Part shown: positions 1,428-39,736 of the stretch, piece after piece
Layout: the number at the start of each line of letters is the position of its first letter
Numbering within the stretch: the stretch's first letter is position 1
Assembly: GCA_045632025.1 (NCBI GenBank)
Contig: JAZQVW010000078.1
Location: 1 to 39,736, forward strand
Source of the DNA: Candidatus Avispirillum sp.
GTDB taxonomy: Bacteria > Bacillota > Clostridia > Oscillospirales > CAG-272
Direction of reading: 5' to 3'
DNA: 39,736 bases
Program-made: the position numbers and the translations under genes
The notes under the pieces: generated by a model
What the model was told of the DNA's origin: nothing
Seen by the model: only the letters and a program-made list of their open reading frames with translations
Database searches by the model: none

Positions 1428-2360
1428 ATGCGGCGATTAACTAAGATATTGTTTTCTTTTTTCGTTTCTCTGTTTGTGTGTAGTATTGTCTTAGGATTAT
1501 TAGGTCGTGCGTTCTGCACTCGCAGCAATGACAACTATACATCAATTCAGCCGGAATCCTTTGTTCCCGACACAATAGAAACAGTTCTCCAAGATGATGA
1601 TTTAAAACAAATTTATGTATGCTATAATGATGCTAACTGTGTCAATGTGTATACCGAAGAAGGCAAATTTCTTTGGTGTGTAGCTACTCCGTATATGCGA
1701 AATTCCTACTTTGAGTTGCAAGATGATAAACTTATCATTTATAACGGGGATGCTTATATTTATGACTCCCAAAACGGTTCTTTTTTGGGAATTGAAAACG
1801 AAGAAAACCTAAATTTAAATTATGATTGGGAACAAAAATACGATGACCAATTCAAAAAAGGAAGCTTTTATTTTGACAGTTTTCAAGTTTATAAAGCAAA
1901 TGCAGATGGTACTTTGACTACCATCGTCAGCCGTCCTTGGTGGCATCACATATTTGATTACTCACTCTGTCTTGGTATAGCTTTCCTTGGTGCGATTGGT
2001 ATTGGCATAAGTATATTTTTAGAAAAGAAAAAAGATTATAACGCAGTAAAGAAAACTGTTGTTTTCGAAAATCGCAAAGCGAGAATTATCAAAGATTATT
2101 TCAAAATAACAACCATCATACACTCGACATATTTTGCCTTAAATATCATCTGCGCCTTTTTTACCGATTGGTTAATCATCGGCATTATCCCGCTGGCTCT
2201 CCATATGATTATTTCAAGCATTATACTGCGGAATATGAAAGATCGGTTATCGTGCAAATCAGAGGAAATGCAAGTAATTGACTTCTGGGAAACAACAGAA
2301 TTTGGTTCTTTTGTGATAGCATTCATTTCCGTCATCATTGTATCTTCAATAGCAGTTTAA
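1428..2360 (+). CDS. Hypothetical membrane protein: N-terminal anchor, ~170-aa extracytoplasmic domain, C-terminal multi-TM block
   Basis: ATG at 1428 follows SD agaggtga. The track start at 1395 is a GTG with no SD. Hydrophobic segments lie at the N-terminus and in the last ~130 aa. The gene is AT-rich, and I recognise no family. Confidence 0.6.
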   Translation: MRRLTKILFSFFVSLFVCSIVLGLLGRAFCTRSNDNYTSIQPESFVPDTIETVLQDDDLKQIYVCYNDANCVNVYTEEGKFLWCVATPYMRNSYFELQDDKLIIYNGDAYIYDSQNGSFLGIENEENLNLNYDWEQKYDDQFKKGSFYFDSFQVYKANADGTLTTIVSRPWWHHIFDYSLCLGIAFLGAIGIGISIFLEKKKDYNAVKKTVVFENRKARIIKDYFKITTIIHSTYFALNIICAFFTDWLIIGIIPLALHMIISSIILRNMKDRLSCKSEEMQVIDFWETTEFGSFVIAFISVIIVSSIAV

Positions 2361-2365
2361 GTGGT

Positions 2366-2396
2366 AAACCGCACCAAGAAATTGGTGCGGTTTTTG
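2366..2396 (+). terminator. Terminator hairpin between convergent ORF 1428..2360 and spoVAC
   Basis: Stem aaaccgcaccaa / ttggtgcggttt followed by tttttg. Confidence 0.8.
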
Positions 2397-2397
2397 T

Positions 2398-2838
2398 TTA
2401 AAACATTGTCGTAAACCAATATATAACCCCATAGACCACCCCTGCGGCAGTGCCGTATAGGATAACGGGACCGGCTATTGTGAATATCTTTGCGCCGACG
2501 CCGAGGACAAACCCTTCACCCTTTGAATCCACCGCGGGGGATGCAACCGCGTTTGCAAAGCCCGTGATTGGCACAAGGGTGCCTGCCCCCGCGTGCTTGG
2601 CTATGTTATCAAAAATGCCGATGCCCGTCAGCAGCGCAGTTATAAATATAAGAGTCACCGACACGAGAGTGGATGCCATTTTATCGGGCAGCCATATGCC
2701 GTAAAGCTGTGATAGCCCCTCGGCTATAAGACATATTGTGCCACCAATCAAAAACGCCTTTGTGCAGTTCTTTTTGGAATCCGTTTTCGTGGCAATCGCC
2801 TTGGCATATTTTTTGTAGTATTTCTTGTTTATTTTCAT
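2398..2838 (-). CDS. spoVAC: Stage V sporulation protein AC (SpoVAC)
   Basis: 146 aa. Shows the characteristic FDNIAKHAGAGTLVPITGFANAVASPAVDSKGEGFVLGVGAKIF segment and 4 TM helices. SD aaaaggagc lies upstream of the ATG at 2838. Confidence 0.85.
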   Translation of the reverse strand: MKINKKYYKKYAKAIATKTDSKKNCTKAFLIGGTICLIAEGLSQLYGIWLPDKMASTLVSVTLIFITALLTGIGIFDNIAKHAGAGTLVPITGFANAVASPAVDSKGEGFVLGVGAKIFTIAGPVILYGTAAGVVYGVIYWFTTMF

Positions 2839-2877
2839 ATTTGCTCCTTTTTTTCGTCAAAGAGAGATACATCACGC

Positions 2878-3035
2878 GGTAGGGGACGGCGCCCTCGACG
2901 TCCCGTCCTTACATACACAAAACAAATAAGATGTTTGAAACTTAGATATAATATTATTAATTACAAACACTTCTATCATACATAATAATTTCAAATCATT
3001 TCTTTATCGGGACGTCGAGGGCGCCGTCCCCTACC
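2878..3035. repeat. Perfect 28-bp inverted repeat (ggtaggggacggcgccctcgacgtcccg) around a 102-bp AT-rich spacer
   Basis: Arm 2878-2905 is the exact reverse complement of 3008-3035. The arm motif and the spacer start (acatacacaaaacaaataag) resemble parts of the 244-bp core (cgggacgtcga..gtcccctacc; acatacattaataaaacataaaa). Confidence 0.9.
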
Positions 3036-3117
3036 TATTCGGTTTGCGATCATTATAAAATGCTCTGTATAATCCTTTCCCAAGGCAATGTTTTTTAAAC
3101 TATTTACAATATATTTT

Positions 3118-3146
3118 TTGACTTTTTCATAAAAATATAATATACT
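3118..3146 (+). promoter_or_regulatory. Putative sigma-A promoter for the zinc-ribbon gene
   Basis: -35 ttgact, 17-nt spacer, -10 tatact. Confidence 0.45.
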
Positions 3147-3190
3147 ATAATCATCTAAGTGTTAAACTTAAGAAAGGTACGGTATACAAA

Positions 3191-3568
3191 ATGGCATTTT
3201 GGGACGAACTTACAAAAAGCGCAAAGGACGCGGCTGCGTTCACTAAAAAGAAGACTGAAGAGCTGACAGCTCTTGCAAAGCTGAAGCTTTCCCTCCACGG
3301 GGAGGAATCCAAGCTTGAAAAGTGCTACAGCGAGATCGGAGAGCACTACTACAATTTCCAGCGCAAGGAAGAGGATCACGCGGCTGAGATCGCGGCGCTT
3401 CTCCTTGAGGCAGACGATCTGAACGCTAAGATCGCAGAGCTGAAGGCTCAGCTTGCAACTCTTCAGAACGACGTTATCTGCAAGAAGTGCGGCGAGCAGA
3501 TCCCCGTTGAGGCATCCTTTTGCCCCATCTGCGGCCAGAAGCAGGACGAAGAAGAAATAAGCGAATAA
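3191..3568 (+). CDS. Zinc-ribbon domain protein with N-terminal coiled coil
   Basis: 125 aa. C-terminal CKKCGEQIPVEASFCPICG (CxxC-N11-CxxC), a heptad-like charged N-terminal region, SD aagaaagg, and a terminator downstream. Confidence 0.7.
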   Translation: MAFWDELTKSAKDAAAFTKKKTEELTALAKLKLSLHGEESKLEKCYSEIGEHYYNFQRKEEDHAAEIAALLLEADDLNAKIAELKAQLATLQNDVICKKCGEQIPVEASFCPICGQKQDEEEISE

Positions 3569-3570
3569 TA

Positions 3571-3598
3571 AAAAAGGAGGCAAAAGCCTCCTTTTTTT
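3571..3598 (+). terminator. Rho-independent terminator
   Basis: Stem ggaggc-aaaa-gcctcc followed by ttttttt. Confidence 0.85.
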
Positions 3599-4808: not shown

Positions 4809-5429
4809 ATGATCAAGCTTGAAAAAACTTCCGTTATGAATATAGACAACGCCATCCGCGGCGCAAGAAACCCTCTTAACAGCTGGGCGAAAAGCGACAG
4901 CTATTACGACGATGAAAACAATTTCGTTTTGGGCGCGGCTGACATGGGCCTCGGCCACCGCCTTGCTATTGCAGGCAACGACCACAGAAAGTTTCTGCGT
5001 ATGGTATTCGTTTCCGTTGACATTACTGCCCCTCTCTACTGGTGGAAGGAATACGACACCTACAAGGTTGGAACTGTTGCAAACTCCACAAGCACAATGC
5101 ACAAGATCCACTCAAAGCCCTTCGCTCGCGAAGACTTCTCCTGCGACAGAATGAGCGAAAAGGCGCTCTCCTGCCTTGACAACGTTATAAACGTTCTTGA
5201 GGAAACACGCCTTGAGTTTATTGAAACAAAGGAGAGAGCACATTGGGACGATCTTATTCAGCTTCTTCCCTCCTCCTACAATCAGACTCGCACATGCACA
5301 ATGAACTATGAAAATCTGATCAATATGTACTATGCAAGAAAAAATCACAAGCTCCCCGAATGGCACGAATTCTGCCATTGGATAGAGTCTCTCCCCTATG
5401 CAAAGGAATGGATCCTTATTAAGGAATAA
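4809..5429 (+). CDS. ThyX-fold (FAD-dependent thymidylate synthase-like) protein lacking the RHR..SxR signature
   Basis: 206 aa. Segments IRGARNPLNSW, DHRKFLRMVFVSVDITAPLYWW and TCTMNYENLINMYYARKNHKLPEWHEF align by eye with ThyX blocks (AARVS.., [47 protein letters not shown]). The RHRxxSxxxxSxR motif is replaced by YDTYKVGTVANSTSTMH. Confidence 0.55.
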   Translation: MIKLEKTSVMNIDNAIRGARNPLNSWAKSDSYYDDENNFVLGAADMGLGHRLAIAGNDHRKFLRMVFVSVDITAPLYWWKEYDTYKVGTVANSTSTMHKIHSKPFAREDFSCDRMSEKALSCLDNVINVLEETRLEFIETKERAHWDDLIQLLPSSYNQTRTCTMNYENLINMYYARKNHKLPEWHEFCHWIESLPYAKEWILIKE

Positions 5430-5433
5430 TATT

Positions 5434-5462
5434 AAAGCCCCCGAAAAAACGGGGGCTTTTAT
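5434..5462 (+). terminator. Rho-independent terminator
   Basis: Stem gcccccg-aaaaaa-cgggggc followed by ttttat. Confidence 0.85.
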
Positions 5463-5481
5463 TATTTATATAACGGAACAC

Positions 5482-5509
5482 AAAAAACCGCCTCGTTTGA
5501 GGCGGTTTT
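5482..5509 (-). terminator. Terminator downstream of ftsZ
   Basis: Stem aaaaccgcctc-gttt-gaggcggtttt. The U-run on the minus strand comes from the a-run at 5482-5487. Confidence 0.8.
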
Positions 5510-5523
5510 AATATGTTATTTAA

Positions 5524-6669
5524 TTAGAAGTAGCGCTTGAAGGCAGGAGCGGGAGCATCTTCCTTCTTATCCTTCTTCTGGAGCATACCGAGAAGCTCGT
5601 CGAGCTCATCATCTGTAATATCGTCGGATTCGATCTCGGGCTTTTCTTCCACAACTGCTGTTGCTGTCTTTCTTGCAATGGGAGTGGATGCCTTGGGAGC
5701 AACCTTCTCGTGGTTGTTTTCAAAGCCTGTAGCGATGATTGTAACCTTCATTGCATCTTCCATTTCAGGATCGAATGCTACACCCCAAATAACTGTTGCA
5801 TCTTCGTGAGCCTCGTTTGCGATCATTGTGCAAGCGATGTCGATCTCGTCCATGCTGATATCAGGGGATGCTGTGATGTTACCAAGGATACCCTTAGCGC
5901 CGGAAATAGATGTTTCAAGAAGGGGGCTGGAGATTGCAGCCTTTGCAGCGCACTCTGCCTTTTCCTTACCTGTTGCATAGCCTACGCCCATGTGAGCATA
6001 GCCTGCGTTCTGCATAACGCTTGTTACGTCTGCAAAGTCAAGGTTGATATATCCGGGAACGTTGATAAGCTCGGAAATGCTCTGTACGCCGTGGCTGAGA
6101 ACGTCGTGTGCGATCTCAAATGCGTTGATCATTGTGATGGGCTTATCGGAAACCTGCTTAAGACGCTCGTTGGGGATAATAACGAGAGAGTCTACGTACT
6201 GGCTGAGAGCAGCGATACCTGCTTCTGCCTGTGTGAGACGCTTCTTACCTTCAAATGCGAAGGGCTTTGTTACGATACCGATTGTGAGCATGCCCATTTC
6301 CTTTGCAACCTTTGCAACAACGGGAGCTGCACCTGTACCTGTACCACCACCCATACCGGTTGTGATAAATACCATATCAGCGCCTGTGAGAGAATCCTTG
6401 ATCTCCTCGATGCTCTCCTCAGCAGATTTTTCACCTACTGCAGGGTTGCTACCTGCGCCGTGACCCTTAGTGATCTTCTCACCAATGGAAATTTTATTTG
6501 TAGCTGCAGAATGGATAAGTGCCTGTCTGTCTGTGTTAATAGCGATGAAATCTACACCGCGAACATTGCTGGAAATCATACGGTTTACAGCATTGTTTCC
6601 GCCGCCGCCTACACCGATTACTTTTATGTTGACGCCGCTTTCAAAGTTATCATCAAGTTCAAAAGCCAT
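5524..6669 (-). CDS. ftsZ: Cell division GTPase FtsZ
   Basis: [17 protein letters not shown] and the tubulin signature [15 protein letters not shown] ggagga upstream. Confidence 0.97.
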
Positions 6670-18292: not shown

Positions 18293-18330
18293 CAAAAAAG
18301 AAAAAGCCCGAGAAGTCTTCTTCTCGGGCT
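18293..18330 (-). terminator. Rho-independent terminator downstream of ileS
   Basis: Stem agcccgagaag-tctt-cttctcgggct, followed on the minus strand by tttttctttttt. Confidence 0.85.
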
Positions 18331-18350
18331 CTACCTATTTAATTATATAC

Positions 18351-21300
18351 TCAGATCTTCTTTACTGTGATCTCAGCCTTTTCGCCGTTGATATTCCATT
18401 CCTTGGAGATACCGTCGATCTTTTCATATGTGAGGCTGTCACAAAGAACTGCTTCGCAGAAGGTTGCGCTGTCAGCGGAAAGGATCTCTGCGAGCTTTTC
18501 ACTTCCGCAAACGGAAACTGCGATATGGTCCATTACGTCAAAGCCGGAATCCTTACGCATTGTCTGAACCTTGGAGATAACCTCGCGAACGAAGCCCTCG
18601 CGAACAAGCTCATCTGTAAGGATAGTGCAAAGAGCAACTGTGATTCCGTTATCGGAAACGGAATAGTAGCCCTCCTTCTGCTGAACGTCAATGAGGAGGT
18701 CCTCACGGGCAAGCTCAACAGCTGTTCCGTCAAAGTCGAAGTGGATAGCACCTGTTGACTCAAGCTCTGCCATTGCAGCATTGCCGTCAACGTTTGCAAG
18801 CGCCTCTCTGATCTTGCCAAGCACCTTACCGTACTTAGGACCTACTGTCTTAAGCTGGGGCTTGAAGCTATAGGAGGAGATCGCAGAAACGTCGGGAACG
18901 AAATGCGCTTCCTTAACGTTAAGCTCATCACGAACGATCTCGTTATAGTATTCGCTAACCTCTCTGTCTGTCTTTACGTAGATAGCGGAAAGGGGCTGAC
19001 GGTTCTTGATATTAGCCGCATTTCTTGCGCTACGGCCAAGAACAACTGCCTCAAGGATGAATTCCATTTCGTCCTCAAGCTTTTCGTCGATCATAGCTTC
19101 ATCATACTCAGGGAAATCGCAGAAGTGAACGCTGATGGGAGCATCAGAGTCAACTGTGCAAACAAGGTTACGATATATATCCTCTGCCATGAAGGGGATC
19201 ATGGGAGCGCCTGCCTTAGCTGTTGTTACAAGGCAAGTATAGAGAGTCATATAAGCTGCGATCTTATCCTCTGTCATTTCTGTTCCCCAGAATCTTTCAC
19301 GAGAACGACGAACGTACCAGTTGGAAAGCTCATCAACAAAGGAGGAGAGGCACTTAGCCGCCTCGGGGATCTTATATGCGCCAAGGTTATTATCAACGCC
19401 GCGAACCATAGAATTGAGCTTGGAAAGGATGAACTTATCCATTACGGAAAGCTTGCAATCCTCAAGCTTATAATTCATAGGATTAAACTGGTCGATCTCT
19501 GCATAGAGTGTCCAGAATGCATACGTGTTCTGAAGTGTGCCCATGAACTTTCTCTGTCCCTCTGTTACAGCTCTGTCGCTGAAGCGTGAAGGAAGCCAAG
19601 GAGCAGAGTTAGTATAGAAATACCAACGGATAGCGTCTGCACCGTGAGTTTCAAGAGCCTTGAAGGGGTCAACTGCGTTACCCTTGGACTTGGACATCTT
19701 CTGTCCGTCCTCGTCCTGAACGAGGCCAAGAACGATAACGTTCTTATAGGGAGCGCGGTCAAAGAGGAGTGTTGAGATAGCAAGGAGAGAATAGAACCAG
19801 CCTCTTGTCTGGTCAACAGCCTCGGAGATGAAGTCTGCGGGGAACTGAGCCTCAAAGAGATCCTTGTTCTCAAAGGGATAGTGATGCTGAGCAAAGGGCA
19901 TTGCGCCGGAATCGAACCAGCAGTCGATAACCTCAGGAACTCTCTTCATTTCGCCGCCACACTCGGAGCACTTGATAGTTACTGCATCGATATAGGGACG
20001 GTGCAATTCGATCTGCTCAGGGCAGTTATCGGAGAGAGAACGAAGCTCTTCAACGGAGCCGATTGCGTGGAAATGTCCGCAGGAGCATTCCCAGATATTA
20101 AGGGGAGTTCCCCAATATCTGTTACGGCTGAGGCCCCAGTCCTGAACGTTTTCAAGCCAGTCGCCAAATCTACCCTTACCGATAGACTCGGGGATCCAGT
20201 TGATTGTGTTATTATTAGCGATGAGTCTGTCCTTAACAGCTGTCATCTTGATGAACCAGCTCTCACGAGCGTAGTAGATAAGGGGAGTATCACATCTCCA
20301 GCAGAAGGGATAGCTATGCTCAAACTGAGGTGCGCTGAAAAGAAGACCCTTTTCTTCAAGAGCGCGGAGAACGAGACGGTCTGCATCCTTAACGAACGTG
20401 CCTGCCCAATCTGTTTCCTCGGACATTTCGCCCTTGCCGTTTACAAGCTGAACGAAAGGAAGGTCGTACTTCATACCAACTCTGTTATCGTCTTCACCGA
20501 ATGCAGGAGCGATATGAACGATACCTGTACCGTCGCCCATTGTTACGTAGTCGTCGCAAGTAACGAACCAGCACTTCTTCTTGGGAGATACGAACTTAAA
20601 GAGGGGCTCGTATTCCTTATATTCAAGCGCAGCACCCACCATTCTCTCAAGAACCTCGTACTGGCCCTCTCCGAGAACAGTATCGCAAAGAGCTGCTGCC
20701 ATATAATATGTGTATTCACCGCTCTGAACCTTAACGTATTCCTCCTTGGGGTTTACACAAAGAGCAACGTTGGAAGGCAGAGTCCAGGGAGTTGTTGTCC
20801 AAGCAAGGAAATATGCATCCTCGCCTACAACCTTGAAGCGCGCAACTGCGGAGCGTTCACGAACGTCCTTATATCCCTGAGCAACCTCGTGGGAGGAAAG
20901 GGGTGTTCCGCAACGGGGGCACTAAGGACCGATCTTATGACCCTTATAAAGAAGACCCTTTTCCCAGATCTGCTTAAGCGCCCACCATTCACTTTCAATA
21001 TAGGAATCGTGGTATGTTACGTAAGGATCCTCCATATCAGCCCAGAAGCCAACTGTGTCTGAGAAGTCCTCCCACATTCCCTTGTACTTCCAAACGGATT
21101 CCTTACACTTATCGATAAAGGGAGCAATGCCGTACTGCTCGATCTGCTCCTTACCGTTGATGCCGAGAAGCTTTTCTACCTCAAGCTCAACAGGAAGACC
21201 GTGTGTATCCCAACCTGCCTTACGGGGCACGTCACAGCCCTTCATTGCGTGGTAACGGGGGATCATATCCTTAATAACTCTTGTGAGAACGTGGCCGATA

Positions 21301-21464
21301 TGGGGCTTACCGTTCGCTGTGGGAGGGCCGTCATAGAACGTGTAATTCTTCTGACCCTTACGTCTTTCAAGACTTGTTTCAAAAATTCTGTTTTCCTTCC
21401 AGAAAGCAAGAGTTTCAGCTTCTCTGGAAACAAAATTAAGGTCGGTCGGTACCTTCTTGTACAT
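18351..21464 (-). pseudogene. ileS: Type-2 isoleucine--tRNA ligase interrupted by a single in-frame TAG (codon at 20922-20924)
   Basis: Track ORFs 20922..21584 and 18351..20702 are in the same frame. Translation across the junction reads [33 protein letters not shown] ([11 protein letters not shown]) and KMSKS motifs are present. The ATG at 21464 has SD aggaga, and a T-box(Ile) leader lies upstream. Confidence 0.9.
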
Positions 21465-21513
21465 TTTATTTTCTCCTGTAAAAGTATATTTTCGATGTAT
21501 CAGGATAGCAGAA

Positions 21514-21541
21514 GAATGCAGAATGCAGAGTGCAGAATGCA
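21514..21541. repeat. Heptamer tandem repeat (gaatgca)x4 in the ileS 5' leader
   Basis: Units are gaatgca gaatgca gagtgca gaatgca, 50-77 nt upstream of the ileS ATG. Confidence 0.9.
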
Positions 21542-21580
21542 GGATTAATGAAGAAATTCGCCGCAGGCAAATTTCAACCT

Positions 21581-21617
<37 letters not shown>

Positions 21618-21632: not shown

Positions 21633-21846
21633 AAAAAAATCCCGTCCGCGAGGACAGGAAAACCTGCTATACCACCTGCATACCATCATATGCGCCCATT
21701 ATAACGGTCGGGCTCCGGCAAGGACTACTATGGTTCGCCCCGCAACTCGGGAGTGATCTTCACGTTCATATCAAGCATCGGGCTCACACCGCCCCCGACT
21801 CGCTTTGGCTTTCCTTGAAGCTACTCTCTCCGTCAACGTTTTTGAC
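21633..21846 (-). promoter_or_regulatory. T-box riboswitch leader, Ile specifier (AUC)
   Basis: The minus strand shows the stem I AGAGAG/GUA elements and specifier context gaagAUCAc (ATC at 21755-21757). The T-box-like sequence is caGGUGGUAuaGCaGG (21664-21680). The terminator is cctgtcc-tcgc-ggacggg followed by attttttt (21633-21658). Confidence 0.75.
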
Positions 21847-21852
21847 CGTATA

Positions 21853-21881
21853 ATTTTATCACATTGCTCCATCCATGTCAA
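21853..21881 (-). promoter_or_regulatory. Sigma-A promoter for the ileS leader
   Basis: On the minus strand: ttgaca, 17-nt spacer, taaaat. Confidence 0.65.
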
Positions 21882-22435: not shown

Positions 22436-24277
22436 GTGCAGGACAAAAAAACTCTTAAATACCTTCGGGAAAAGGCTGCCCTTCTGCCTAAGTCTCCCGG
22501 AGTTTATATTATGGAAAACTCGGAGGGCAAGGTAATCTACGTTGGCAAATCCCGTGCGCTGAAGAATCGCGTCAGCCAATACTTCCACGGAAGCCATGAC
22601 CCGAAGACCACCCGTATGGCAGGGAGTGTGCGCGATTTCCGATATATCACCTGCGACACGGAGTTTGAGGCGCTTATTCTTGAAAACAATCTTATCAAGC
22701 AATACACGCCCAAATACAACATTCTTTTAAAGGACGCCAAAAGCTATCCCTATATCAAGATAACCGATGAGGAATACCCCCGAATCGTTATGACGAGGCG
22801 CAGAAGCGAGGACGGAACCTATTTCGGCCCATATTCAAGCACCTCTACTATAAACAATATTATAAAGACCATCGAACGAACCTTAGGTGTTCCCTCCTGC
22901 AAGCGCAGATTCCCCCGCGACATCGGAAAGGCTCGTCCCTGCGTTTACAAGCAGCTGGGCAGATGCTGCGGCGTTTGCGCGGGCGACGTTTCGCACAAGG
23001 ATTACAACGCTATCATCTCCTGCGCAAAGGAAATGCTCAAGGGCAACACATCCGAGGTCAAGCGTCAGCTCACAGAGCAGATGCTTACAGCAGCCGAAGA
23101 GGAGCGATTTGAGGAGGCGGCAAGGCTCCGCGACTCTATTCTCTCCCTTGAAAAGCTTGGGCAGAATCAGAAGACCGACCTTGGACTTGACACAGAATAC
23201 GACGTTATCGCCCTTTCAACTCACGAGGGATGCGACTGCGCCGCGGTTTTGTACATCAGAAACGGCACTATCTCCGACAGCGAGCATTTTATGTTCGGAG
23301 CAGACGAGATCACGGGCGCCGCAGGAAACGAGGAGGAATCCCCATTTCTTTCATTTATTATCAATCTTTACAGCCTTCGCGAATATATTCCAAGGGAGAT
23401 ACTGCTCTCCTTTGAAATGCCCGAGAACGACAAGGCTCTGGCAGGAGAATATCTCTCGCGCAAGGCAGGTCGCAAGGTCACCCTCAGAACTCCTCAGAGA
23501 GGCGAAACGCGAAAGCTTTGTCTTATGGCGGAAAAGGATGCTCAGCGCCACAGCGAGACCAGAAGAAAACGAGAGGACTCCGACGAGAGGGTTCTTATGT
23601 CACTTGCCTCCCTGCTCCACCTTGAGGTGCTTCCCGAGCGAATAGAGGCATACGACATTTCTAATCTCGGACGAGAGCATATAACCGCAGGTATGATAGT
23701 TATTGAAAAGGGCCGTTTCAAAAAGCGCCACTACCGTTCCTTTAAAATCAAGGGACAGGAGATGCCCGACGACTATTCTGCAATGACGGAGACTATACGC
23801 CGCCGTCTAATGAACTTAGAAGACGATGACGAGTCCTTCTCTCAGACGCCCGACCTTATTCTCCTTGACGGAGGACGAGGCCACGTTAGCGTTATCAGAG
23901 AGCTTATGCGCGAGCTTAACATGGACATACCCGTTTTCGGTATGGTCAAGGACAGCCACCACAAAACGAGAACTATTACGGACGAGCACGACGAGGTGAG
24001 CATTGCACGAGAGCCCGAGGTGTTCCGCTTCGTTTACAGAATACAGGAGGAGGTACACCGCTACACCGTTGGTAAAATGACAAACGCCAAGCTCAAAAGC
24101 CTTAAGACCTCCAGCCTCGAAAAAATAAGCGGCATCGGCCCTGCTAAAGCAAAAGCCCTTCTTCTTCATTTTGAAAGCCTTGAAGCCTTGAAAAATGCAA
24201 CAAAAGAGGATATAATAAAGGTTAAGGGCATCAGCGAAGCGAATGCTGATGAGATCGTGAAGTATTTTAGTAAATAG
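22436..24277 (+). CDS. uvrC: Excinuclease ABC subunit C (UvrC)
   Basis: GIY-YIG N-terminus (PGVYIM..GKVIYVGKS..L.NRV..Y) and a C-terminal HhH region (GIGPAKAKALL). GTG start at 22436 with SD aaggagg. Ends in TAG, the only TAG stop among the CDS called here. Confidence 0.93.
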   Translation: MQDKKTLKYLREKAALLPKSPGVYIMENSEGKVIYVGKSRALKNRVSQYFHGSHDPKTTRMAGSVRDFRYITCDTEFEALILENNLIKQYTPKYNILLKDAKSYPYIKITDEEYPRIVMTRRRSEDGTYFGPYSSTSTINNIIKTIERTLGVPSCKRRFPRDIGKARPCVYKQLGRCCGVCAGDVSHKDYNAIISCAKEMLKGNTSEVKRQLTEQMLTAAEEERFEEAARLRDSILSLEKLGQNQKTDLGLDTEYDVIALSTHEGCDCAAVLYIRNGTISDSEHFMFGADEITGAAGNEEESPFLSFIINLYSLREYIPREILLSFEMPENDKALAGEYLSRKAGRKVTLRTPQRGETRKLCLMAEKDAQRHSETRRKREDSDERVLMSLASLLHLEVLPERIEAYDISNLGREHITAGMIVIEKGRFKKRHYRSFKIKGQEMPDDYSAMTETIRRRLMNLEDDDESFSQTPDLILLDGGRGHVSVIRELMRELNMDIPVFGMVKDSHHKTRTITDEHDEVSIAREPEVFRFVYRIQEEVHRYTVGKMTNAKLKSLKTSSLEKISGIGPAKAKALLLHFESLEALKNATKEDIIKVKGISEANADEIVKYFSK

Positions 24278-39600: not shown

Positions 39601-39676
39601 GGAAGCATAGCTCAGTTGGGAGAGCATCTGCCTTACAAGCAGAGGGTCATAGGTTCGAGCCCTATTGTTTCCACCA
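39601..39676 (+). tRNA. tRNA-Val (anticodon TAC), CCA encoded
   Basis: Cloverleaf folded by hand: acceptor ggaagca/tgtttcc, D arm gctc..gagc, anticodon stem tctgc/gcaga with loop cTTACAa, T arm atagg-ttcgagc-cctat, then the discriminator a and CCA. Confidence 0.9.
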
Positions 39677-39679
39677 TAT

Positions 39680-39736
39680 GGCCCGGTAGCTCAGTTGGTT
39701 AGAGCGCTAGCCTGTCACGCTAGAGGTCAGGGGTTC
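39680..39736 (+). tRNA. tRNA-Asp (anticodon GTC), truncated by the window end
   Basis: ggcccgg-ta-gctc..gagc, anticodon stem ctagc/gctag with loop cTGTCAc. The T arm is cut at 39736. Confidence 0.85.

Follow-up and report, generated by a model that had tools for sequence, protein, structure and literature searches.

The window, by which we mean the whole stretch of 39,736 nucleotides analysed here, an entire NCBI contig from an uncultured, Candidatus Avispirillum-like gut Clostridia genome, carries on its minus strand a gene for a type-2 (IleRS2-like) isoleucyl-tRNA synthetase, ileS, which was identified by translation and homology and spans positions 18351..21464, with 1037 codons, a TGA stop and one interruption. 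The gene starts with an ATG at 21464 (MYKKVPTD...), preceded by an SD-like AGGAG 8 nt 5' of the ATG, and translation of the minus strand from 21650 to 18351 places the stop codon, TGA, at 18351-18353. Two mechanically called open reading frames, 20922..21584 and 18351..20702, are pieces of this single gene. With both halves read together, the product aligns without gaps to full-length IleRS proteins of 1037 aa, with 100% coverage and identities of up to 98% (the 98% match being P0001).

When the product was compared with solved structures, the best match was IleRS2 of Priestia megaterium (8c8u; 1072 bits), followed by the Thermus thermophilus enzyme (1ile; 889 bits), whereas an IleRS1 (1ffy) scored 357 bits; the far higher scores to 8c8u and 1ile assign the product to type 2. 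Type-2 bacterial IleRS is eukaryote-like and resistant to mupirocin. Both 8c8u and 1ile align with the product over its full length and have the HIGH and KMSKS signatures in common with it. These motifs, which the original prediction had described as intact, were located at residues 55-58 (HIGH; 21291..21302, minus strand) and 589-593 (KMSKS; 19686..19700, minus strand), the latter 3' of the interruption. A CPRC motif at residues 182-185 (20910..20921, minus strand) lies directly 3' of the interruption and pairs with CWRC at residues 388-391; by analogy with Thermus IleRS, the two probably form a zinc-binding knuckle where the chain enters the CP1/editing insertion. The CPRC motif is part of a longer PYCPxC motif, which is P-Y-C-P-S-C in 8c8u and PYCPRC in the product save for the interrupted Tyr. 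Unlike other type-2 enzymes, the ileS of the window has its frame broken at this Tyr and a Gly in place of the Val two residues earlier. None of the relatives is interrupted; they are 1037 aa long and contain the Pfam domains tRNA-synt_1, Anticodon_1 and DUF5915.

Promoter, leader and terminators of ileS

Upstream of ileS is a sigma-70-type promoter, TTGACA-17-TAAAAT with a TG extension (21853..21881, minus strand), which is conserved in relatives. It is followed by a T-box leader at 21647..21845 (minus strand) that matches Rfam RF00230 over model positions 1-219 with 80.6 bits and an E-value of 1.3e-17; this score lies under the Rfam gathering score of 93, so that a default scan misses the leader and a permissive scan recovers the full model. 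The specifier, read from the alignment, is GAAG-AUC-A on the 3' side of the Stem I internal loop, with the AUC (Ile) codon standing before the conserved purine. The leader ends in a terminator hairpin and a T run (21640..21659, minus strand), and a second intrinsic terminator with a 13-bp stem and a T run lies 3' of ileS (18303..18332, minus strand). An Ile specifier coupled to a terminator agrees with ileS being a regulated synthetase gene. The spacer between the leader terminator and the ileS start is unusually long, about 180 nt, and contains two 7-nt tandem arrays.

This arrangement resembles that of the T-box(Ile) synthetase operons of Bacillota, in which a promoter, a Stem I with an AUC specifier, the T-box sequence and a terminator likewise stand 5' of ileS; it differs from them in the leader score below the gathering threshold and in the long spacer. 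Alignment with relatives showed that the leader, with its specifier, and the promoter are kept. Each of the elements that had been proposed to be intact, namely the promoter, the T-box(Ile) leader, the SD sequence and the terminator, could thus be located.

An in-frame TAG at codon 181

The interruption is a TAG at codon 181 of ileS (20922..20924, minus strand; the plus strand reads CTA), and the minus-strand translation from 21650 to 18351 contains no other internal stop in the ileS frame. A type-2 IleRS gene is expected to have an uninterrupted frame; that of the window is broken at this one codon, and the two same-frame fragments separated by a single TAG, as originally proposed, belong to one continuous reading frame. 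The residue at this position is Tyr in every relative: in 120 of 120 full-length homologues and in all 118 partial homologues that bear the xxxC[PS]xC motif. At the DNA level, the nine closest relatives, Candidatus Avispirillum-like MAGs with 88-92% nucleotide identity in ileS, all have TAT at the site, reading ATC GTT CCT TAT TGC where the window reads ATC GGT CCT TAG TGC. The suggestion that a conserved Tyr was lost through a TAY-to-TAG change is therefore borne out by some 240 homologous proteins and by the codon of the nine closest genes.

We searched for the interrupted allele outside the window. In a cluster look-up, the 180-aa and 783-aa fragments of ileS were on record solely on the window's own contig, and a 220-aa version of the N-terminal fragment was absent from the collection; none of these three fragments had an exact match in the contig index. 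Among roughly 280 retrieved proteins, only that of the window ends at residue 180. A 226-aa query around the TAG site, directed at ileS of the same species, found a best partial protein match that was 94% identical, and a degenerate 44-nt pattern of the TAG-site DNA had 0 matches in JGI metagenomes. Look-ups with HPr and RsmD gave a similar picture: the former led to relatives at about 90% nucleotide identity only, and an exact look-up of the latter returned no match. Among the searches run, no second assembly of the species was found. The TAG at codon 181 is thus present in the deposited sequence, isolated and non-conserved.

A break at this position could in principle mark a naturally split enzyme, in which a 180-aa N-terminal piece and a C-terminal piece with a start of its own come together non-covalently. 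The break does fall at the entry of the CP1 insertion, and experiments have rebuilt class I synthetases from pieces split in this region. Against this, the first in-frame start after the TAG is the ATG at 20702, which lacks an SD-like sequence within the preceding 20 nt; a C-terminal piece initiated there would lose CPRC and about 70 conserved residues, and no relative is split. We rejected this reading, the least probable of those considered and one to which we attach next to no weight, for want of a usable restart codon.

A second private substitution at codon 179

Where relatives have GTT (Val) at codon 179 of ileS (20928..20930, minus strand), the window has GGT (Gly). This V179G replacement, which the original prediction had overlooked, results from a T>G change at 20929 that is private to the window and lies 7 nt upstream of the change that creates the TAG. 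Val occupies residue 179 in 20 of 20 close homologues and, within a VPY sequence, in 117 of 118 partial homologues. The whole 1037-codon gene has six residues that are unique to the window, four of which are conservative or at variable sites; residues 179 and 181 are the sole radical window-unique replacements at invariant positions. On the coding strand each is a T>G change, one at 20929 and the other at 20922, and they are two codons apart. Given the nonsense change, the chance that one of a handful of such replacements falls within two codons of it is about 1%, and the closeness of the two makes a single local event the economical reading. A templated origin for the double change was considered and discarded: a second copy of the mutated 14-mer, ATCGGTCCTTAGTG, was not found at up to 2 mismatches, nor does a quasi-palindrome or nearby repeat extend over the site.

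Gene context and selection on ileS

MAGs that bear the label Candidatus Avispirillum sp., Clostridia incertae sedis, are the nearest genomes, and they share with the window a gene order in which HPr and uvrC lie upstream of ileS and mraZ-rsmH-ftsL-PBP-murE-mraY-ftsW-murG downstream; in the window, FtsQ and FtsZ come after murG. In a metagenome contig of the same clade (L008), the uvrC gene carries a private nonsense codon, GAA>TAA, at a position where relatives have GAA. On the contig of the window, no broken gene other than ileS was found.

The ileS of the window differs from that of one relative (L001) by 251 synonymous and 25 non-synonymous codons, and of the 39 substitutions seen in the window alone, 31 fall on a third codon position. 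These patterns indicate that purifying selection acted on ileS during essentially the whole time since it diverged from its relatives. Combined with the conserved regulatory elements, this selection implies a lesion that is extremely recent, if it is real at all. A decaying pseudogene was rejected on the same counts, the leader and the terminators being intact as well, and the original argument against an old pseudogene stands, resting now on strong purifying selection in addition to intact regulatory and catalytic motifs.

TAG as a stop codon in the window

The only credible gene end at TAG in the window is that of uvrC (24275..24277, plus strand), where relatives have TAA: the codon aligns position for position with the TAA stops of three related loci (L092, L001 and L002), which shows that TAG acts as a stop in the window. 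The end of uvrC reads TAG TTT TAG GAA TAA, so that a TAA backup follows four codons on; the original prediction had singled out this gene and this sequence as the sole case, and it is the only credible one. A second TAG-ended open reading frame, 3155..3583 (minus strand), is probably spurious; the opposite strand holds an open reading frame at 3191..3568 with zinc-ribbon Pfam matches. TAG thus closes 1 of about 36 genes in the window. In four relatives it closes 1 of the 53 genes called, these being largely the same orthologues and too few to argue for reassignment.

Within genes, no other in-frame TAG was found in about 12,000 other codons of the window, and reading TAG as a sense codon neither merges nor extends any other credible gene. 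That ileS alone among the long open reading frames has one internal TAG agrees with what had been noted before. Two features expected of recoding were looked for. A stop conserved at the same site in orthologues was not observed, the site being TAT in 9 of 9 close relatives and Tyr in about 240 proteins; nor were recurrent in-frame TAGs seen together with disuse of TAG as a terminator. General reassignment of TAG is excluded by these data.

A narrower proposal is that UAG at ileS codon 181 alone is decoded, whether by a supF-like tRNA-Tyr(CUA) or other amber suppressor, as pyrrolysine, or through a lineage-specific reassignment. The scarcity of TAG gene ends in the window and in relatives, the TAA that backs up the TAG of uvrC and the single-base step from a Tyr codon to TAG all speak for it; a Tyr codon one base removed from TAG is the classic target of tyrosine-inserting amber suppressors. 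The resemblance extends to programmed UAG decoding as in pyrrolysine-containing methylamine methyltransferases, TAG-recoded phages and supF-type amber suppression, in which, as here, a gene that must be expressed contains an in-frame TAG and TAG stops are few. It ends there, however: the TAG in ileS is single and non-conserved, the nine close relatives having TAT; TAG is a stop in uvrC, at the position of the relatives' TAA; and suppressor tRNA or Pyl genes are missing from the window. The contig encodes no tRNAs other than Val(TAC) and a truncated Asp(GTC), and a search for a suppressor tRNA in the window and 12 related loci, a sample of very low power, found none. The TAG is also followed by T, which is a good termination context in bacteria, and recoding would leave the neighbouring V179G unexplained. 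We regard decoding of this codon as highly improbable, and its most specific form, in which an amber suppressor such as a supF-like tRNA-Tyr(CUA) reads the UAG as Tyr in the lineage's only IleRS and the gene would be functional, as more improbable still. The earlier caution that TAG decoding could not formally be excluded is weakened by the match between the TAG of uvrC and TAA; what survives of it is a private suppressor, to which we assign this low probability.

Origin of the paired substitutions

That the TAG is absent from relatives, occurs on one contig only and is paired with V179G favours either an error or a very recent private change. We think that the TAG probably stems from a local base-calling or consensus error that survived MAG assembly, and not from a change in the cell. 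Two private T>G errors (GTT>GGT at codon 179 and TAT>TAG at codon 181) would then have been introduced into an otherwise intact, T-box-regulated, housekeeping type-2 ileS. The organism itself would have TAT and GTT at these codons and make a normal 1037-aa IleRS, and its genetic code would be the standard one, in which it seldom uses TAG as a stop.

The substitution at 20929 has the trinucleotide context G[T>G]T, and that at 20922 has A[T>G]T. Illumina two-colour chemistry is reported to produce a recurrent T>G/A>C artefact that is enriched in A[T>G]T, G[T>G]T and T[T>G]T, typically with an alternate depth of 2-4 reads (Fu et al., Genome Biol 2026, PMC13218037). The changes in ileS are of the same type and in the same contexts, both sites having the N[T]T form of the N[T]T or N[T]G context that characterises the artefact. 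Two differences from the published case are that the artefact was described in low-allele-fraction variant calls from human samples, whereas the ileS changes are in an assembled consensus, and that the window shows no contig-wide excess of T>G. An N[T]T context at both sites would moreover arise by coincidence with a probability of roughly 1-in-4 to 1-in-16, which tempers the argument.

Biological expectation also bears on the choice. According to a preprint on the two IleRS types (bioRxiv 10.1101/2022.02.09.479832), the standalone housekeeping gene of bacteria is generally one of the two, ileS1 or ileS2. Since ileS2 is thus normally essential on its own, one would a priori hardly expect most of a natural population to carry a nonsense allele of it. 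The nonsense codon in the uvrC gene of L008 suggests that such codons are not rare in metagenome contigs of this clade, whatever their cause, and thereby supports an error in ileS.

Several observations count against an error. The contig is otherwise clean, with no other broken gene. Among T>G changes private to the window, the non-synonymous fraction is 0.37, a figure inflated by multi-step Ser and Arg codons and in line with other substitution classes, so that there is no general non-synonymous T>G excess and the assembly is not generally error-ridden. Assemblers based on k-mers, in addition, usually need an error to be present in at least two reads. The type of substitution does not discriminate, since A:T>C:G is also the signature of genuine mutation by 8-oxo-dGTP misincorporation.

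The main competitor of a sequencing or consensus error is a real and very recent private lesion, in which a double T>G, arising as one multi-nucleotide event or as two hits, inactivated ileS in the sequenced sub-population. Such a lesion may persist in non-viable or transient cells, through a second IleRS (ileS1 or another ileS2), or by low-level near-cognate readthrough. We consider it rather unlikely, but well worth weighing. Both changes are, after all, carried by the deposited sequence on an otherwise clean contig; a low ratio of non-synonymous to synonymous change with intact regulation means that ileS still worked until very recently, as would be the case with a fresh mutation no less than with an error; and the private nonsense codon in uvrC of L008 is as compatible with a lesion as with an error. 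Some Bacillota, according to two sources (PMC10485003; 10.1101/2022.02.09.479832), have both ileS1 and ileS2.

Other features make a real lesion harder to accept. According to 10.1101/2022.02.09.479832, ileS2 is generally the sole housekeeping copy, and the ileS of the window has the conserved T-box(Ile) control expected of a working copy, with no second ileS within the 39.7 kb of the window. The truncated 180-aa product would be without CP1, KMSKS and the anticodon-binding domain, and the next in-frame start lies 73 codons 3' of the TAG. Selection should remove a majority nonsense allele from an essential gene, and this one was found in no other assembly searched. The original prediction had offered three explanations without ranking them; error and recent private change have gained from the analysis, and amber suppression or TAG decoding has lost ground.

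Implications for annotation

The TAG in ileS does not look like an altered genetic code or a programmed feature. Amber suppression, if true, would be a natural, chromosomally tolerated case in a free-living gut bacterium and of wider interest. If the TAG is an artefact or a private lesion, the case is an ordinary one and matters only as a flag on annotation and quality. In the event of an artefact, paired T>G changes in NTT contexts can pass for nonsense mutations in a MAG consensus. For either an artefact or a private lesion, the fitting annotation is an ileS gene with a probable sequencing error instead of a pseudogene, and it would be wrong to count the MAG as one without an IleRS.

Leader and neighbourhood of ileS

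The T-box in the leader of ileS, the type-2 isoleucyl-tRNA synthetase gene, occupies 21647-21845 on the minus strand and scores 80.6 bits against an Rfam gathering score of 93; it lies under the threshold and goes unreported when the contig is scanned at the default Rfam gathering threshold. Between the T-box terminator and the ileS start codon are two 7-nt tandem arrays, at 21513-21542 and 21581-21613, with plus-strand units of AGAATGC (4.3 copies) and TCATTCA (4.7 copies), which on the ileS strand read as (GCATTCT)n and (TGAATGA)n. The ileS leader spacers of the relatives are shorter than that of the window, and the array units are absent from them or present in only one or two copies. The arrays may represent slippage-prone spacer DNA.

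In one related genome (L005; GCA_054271295.1), a gene for a 304-aa methyltransferase (5298-6212) is inserted between mraZ and ileS; the window and the other relatives lack it. At 39601-39736 of the window, on the plus strand, tRNA-Val(TAC) lies 4 nt upstream of tRNA-Asp(GTC), which is incomplete, being truncated by the contig end; the contig probably terminates within a tRNA cluster.

Nonsense codon in a related uvrC

A further lone in-frame stop in a conserved gene was observed in a metagenome contig from the clade of the window (L008; ENA ERZ27303017), where uvrC (1563-3404) is broken at codon 442 by a private GAA-to-TAA change; two related loci, L009 and L002, have GAA at this codon.

TAG as a terminator

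In the greedy ORF set, gene ends in the window comprised 25 TAA, 10 TGA, and 3 TAG, the last being the ileS break, a probably spurious ORF, and the end of one credible gene. The probably spurious ORF belongs to a pair overlapping on opposite strands at 3155-3583: the plus-strand ORF (3191-3568) has zinc-ribbon Pfam matches, and the minus-strand ORF, which is the longer of the two and ends in TAG, has none. Across four related loci (L001, L092, L002, and L006), one of 53 called genes ended in TAG. TAG is seldom used as a terminator in this clade, as observed in the window and these four loci, a small and non-independent sample.
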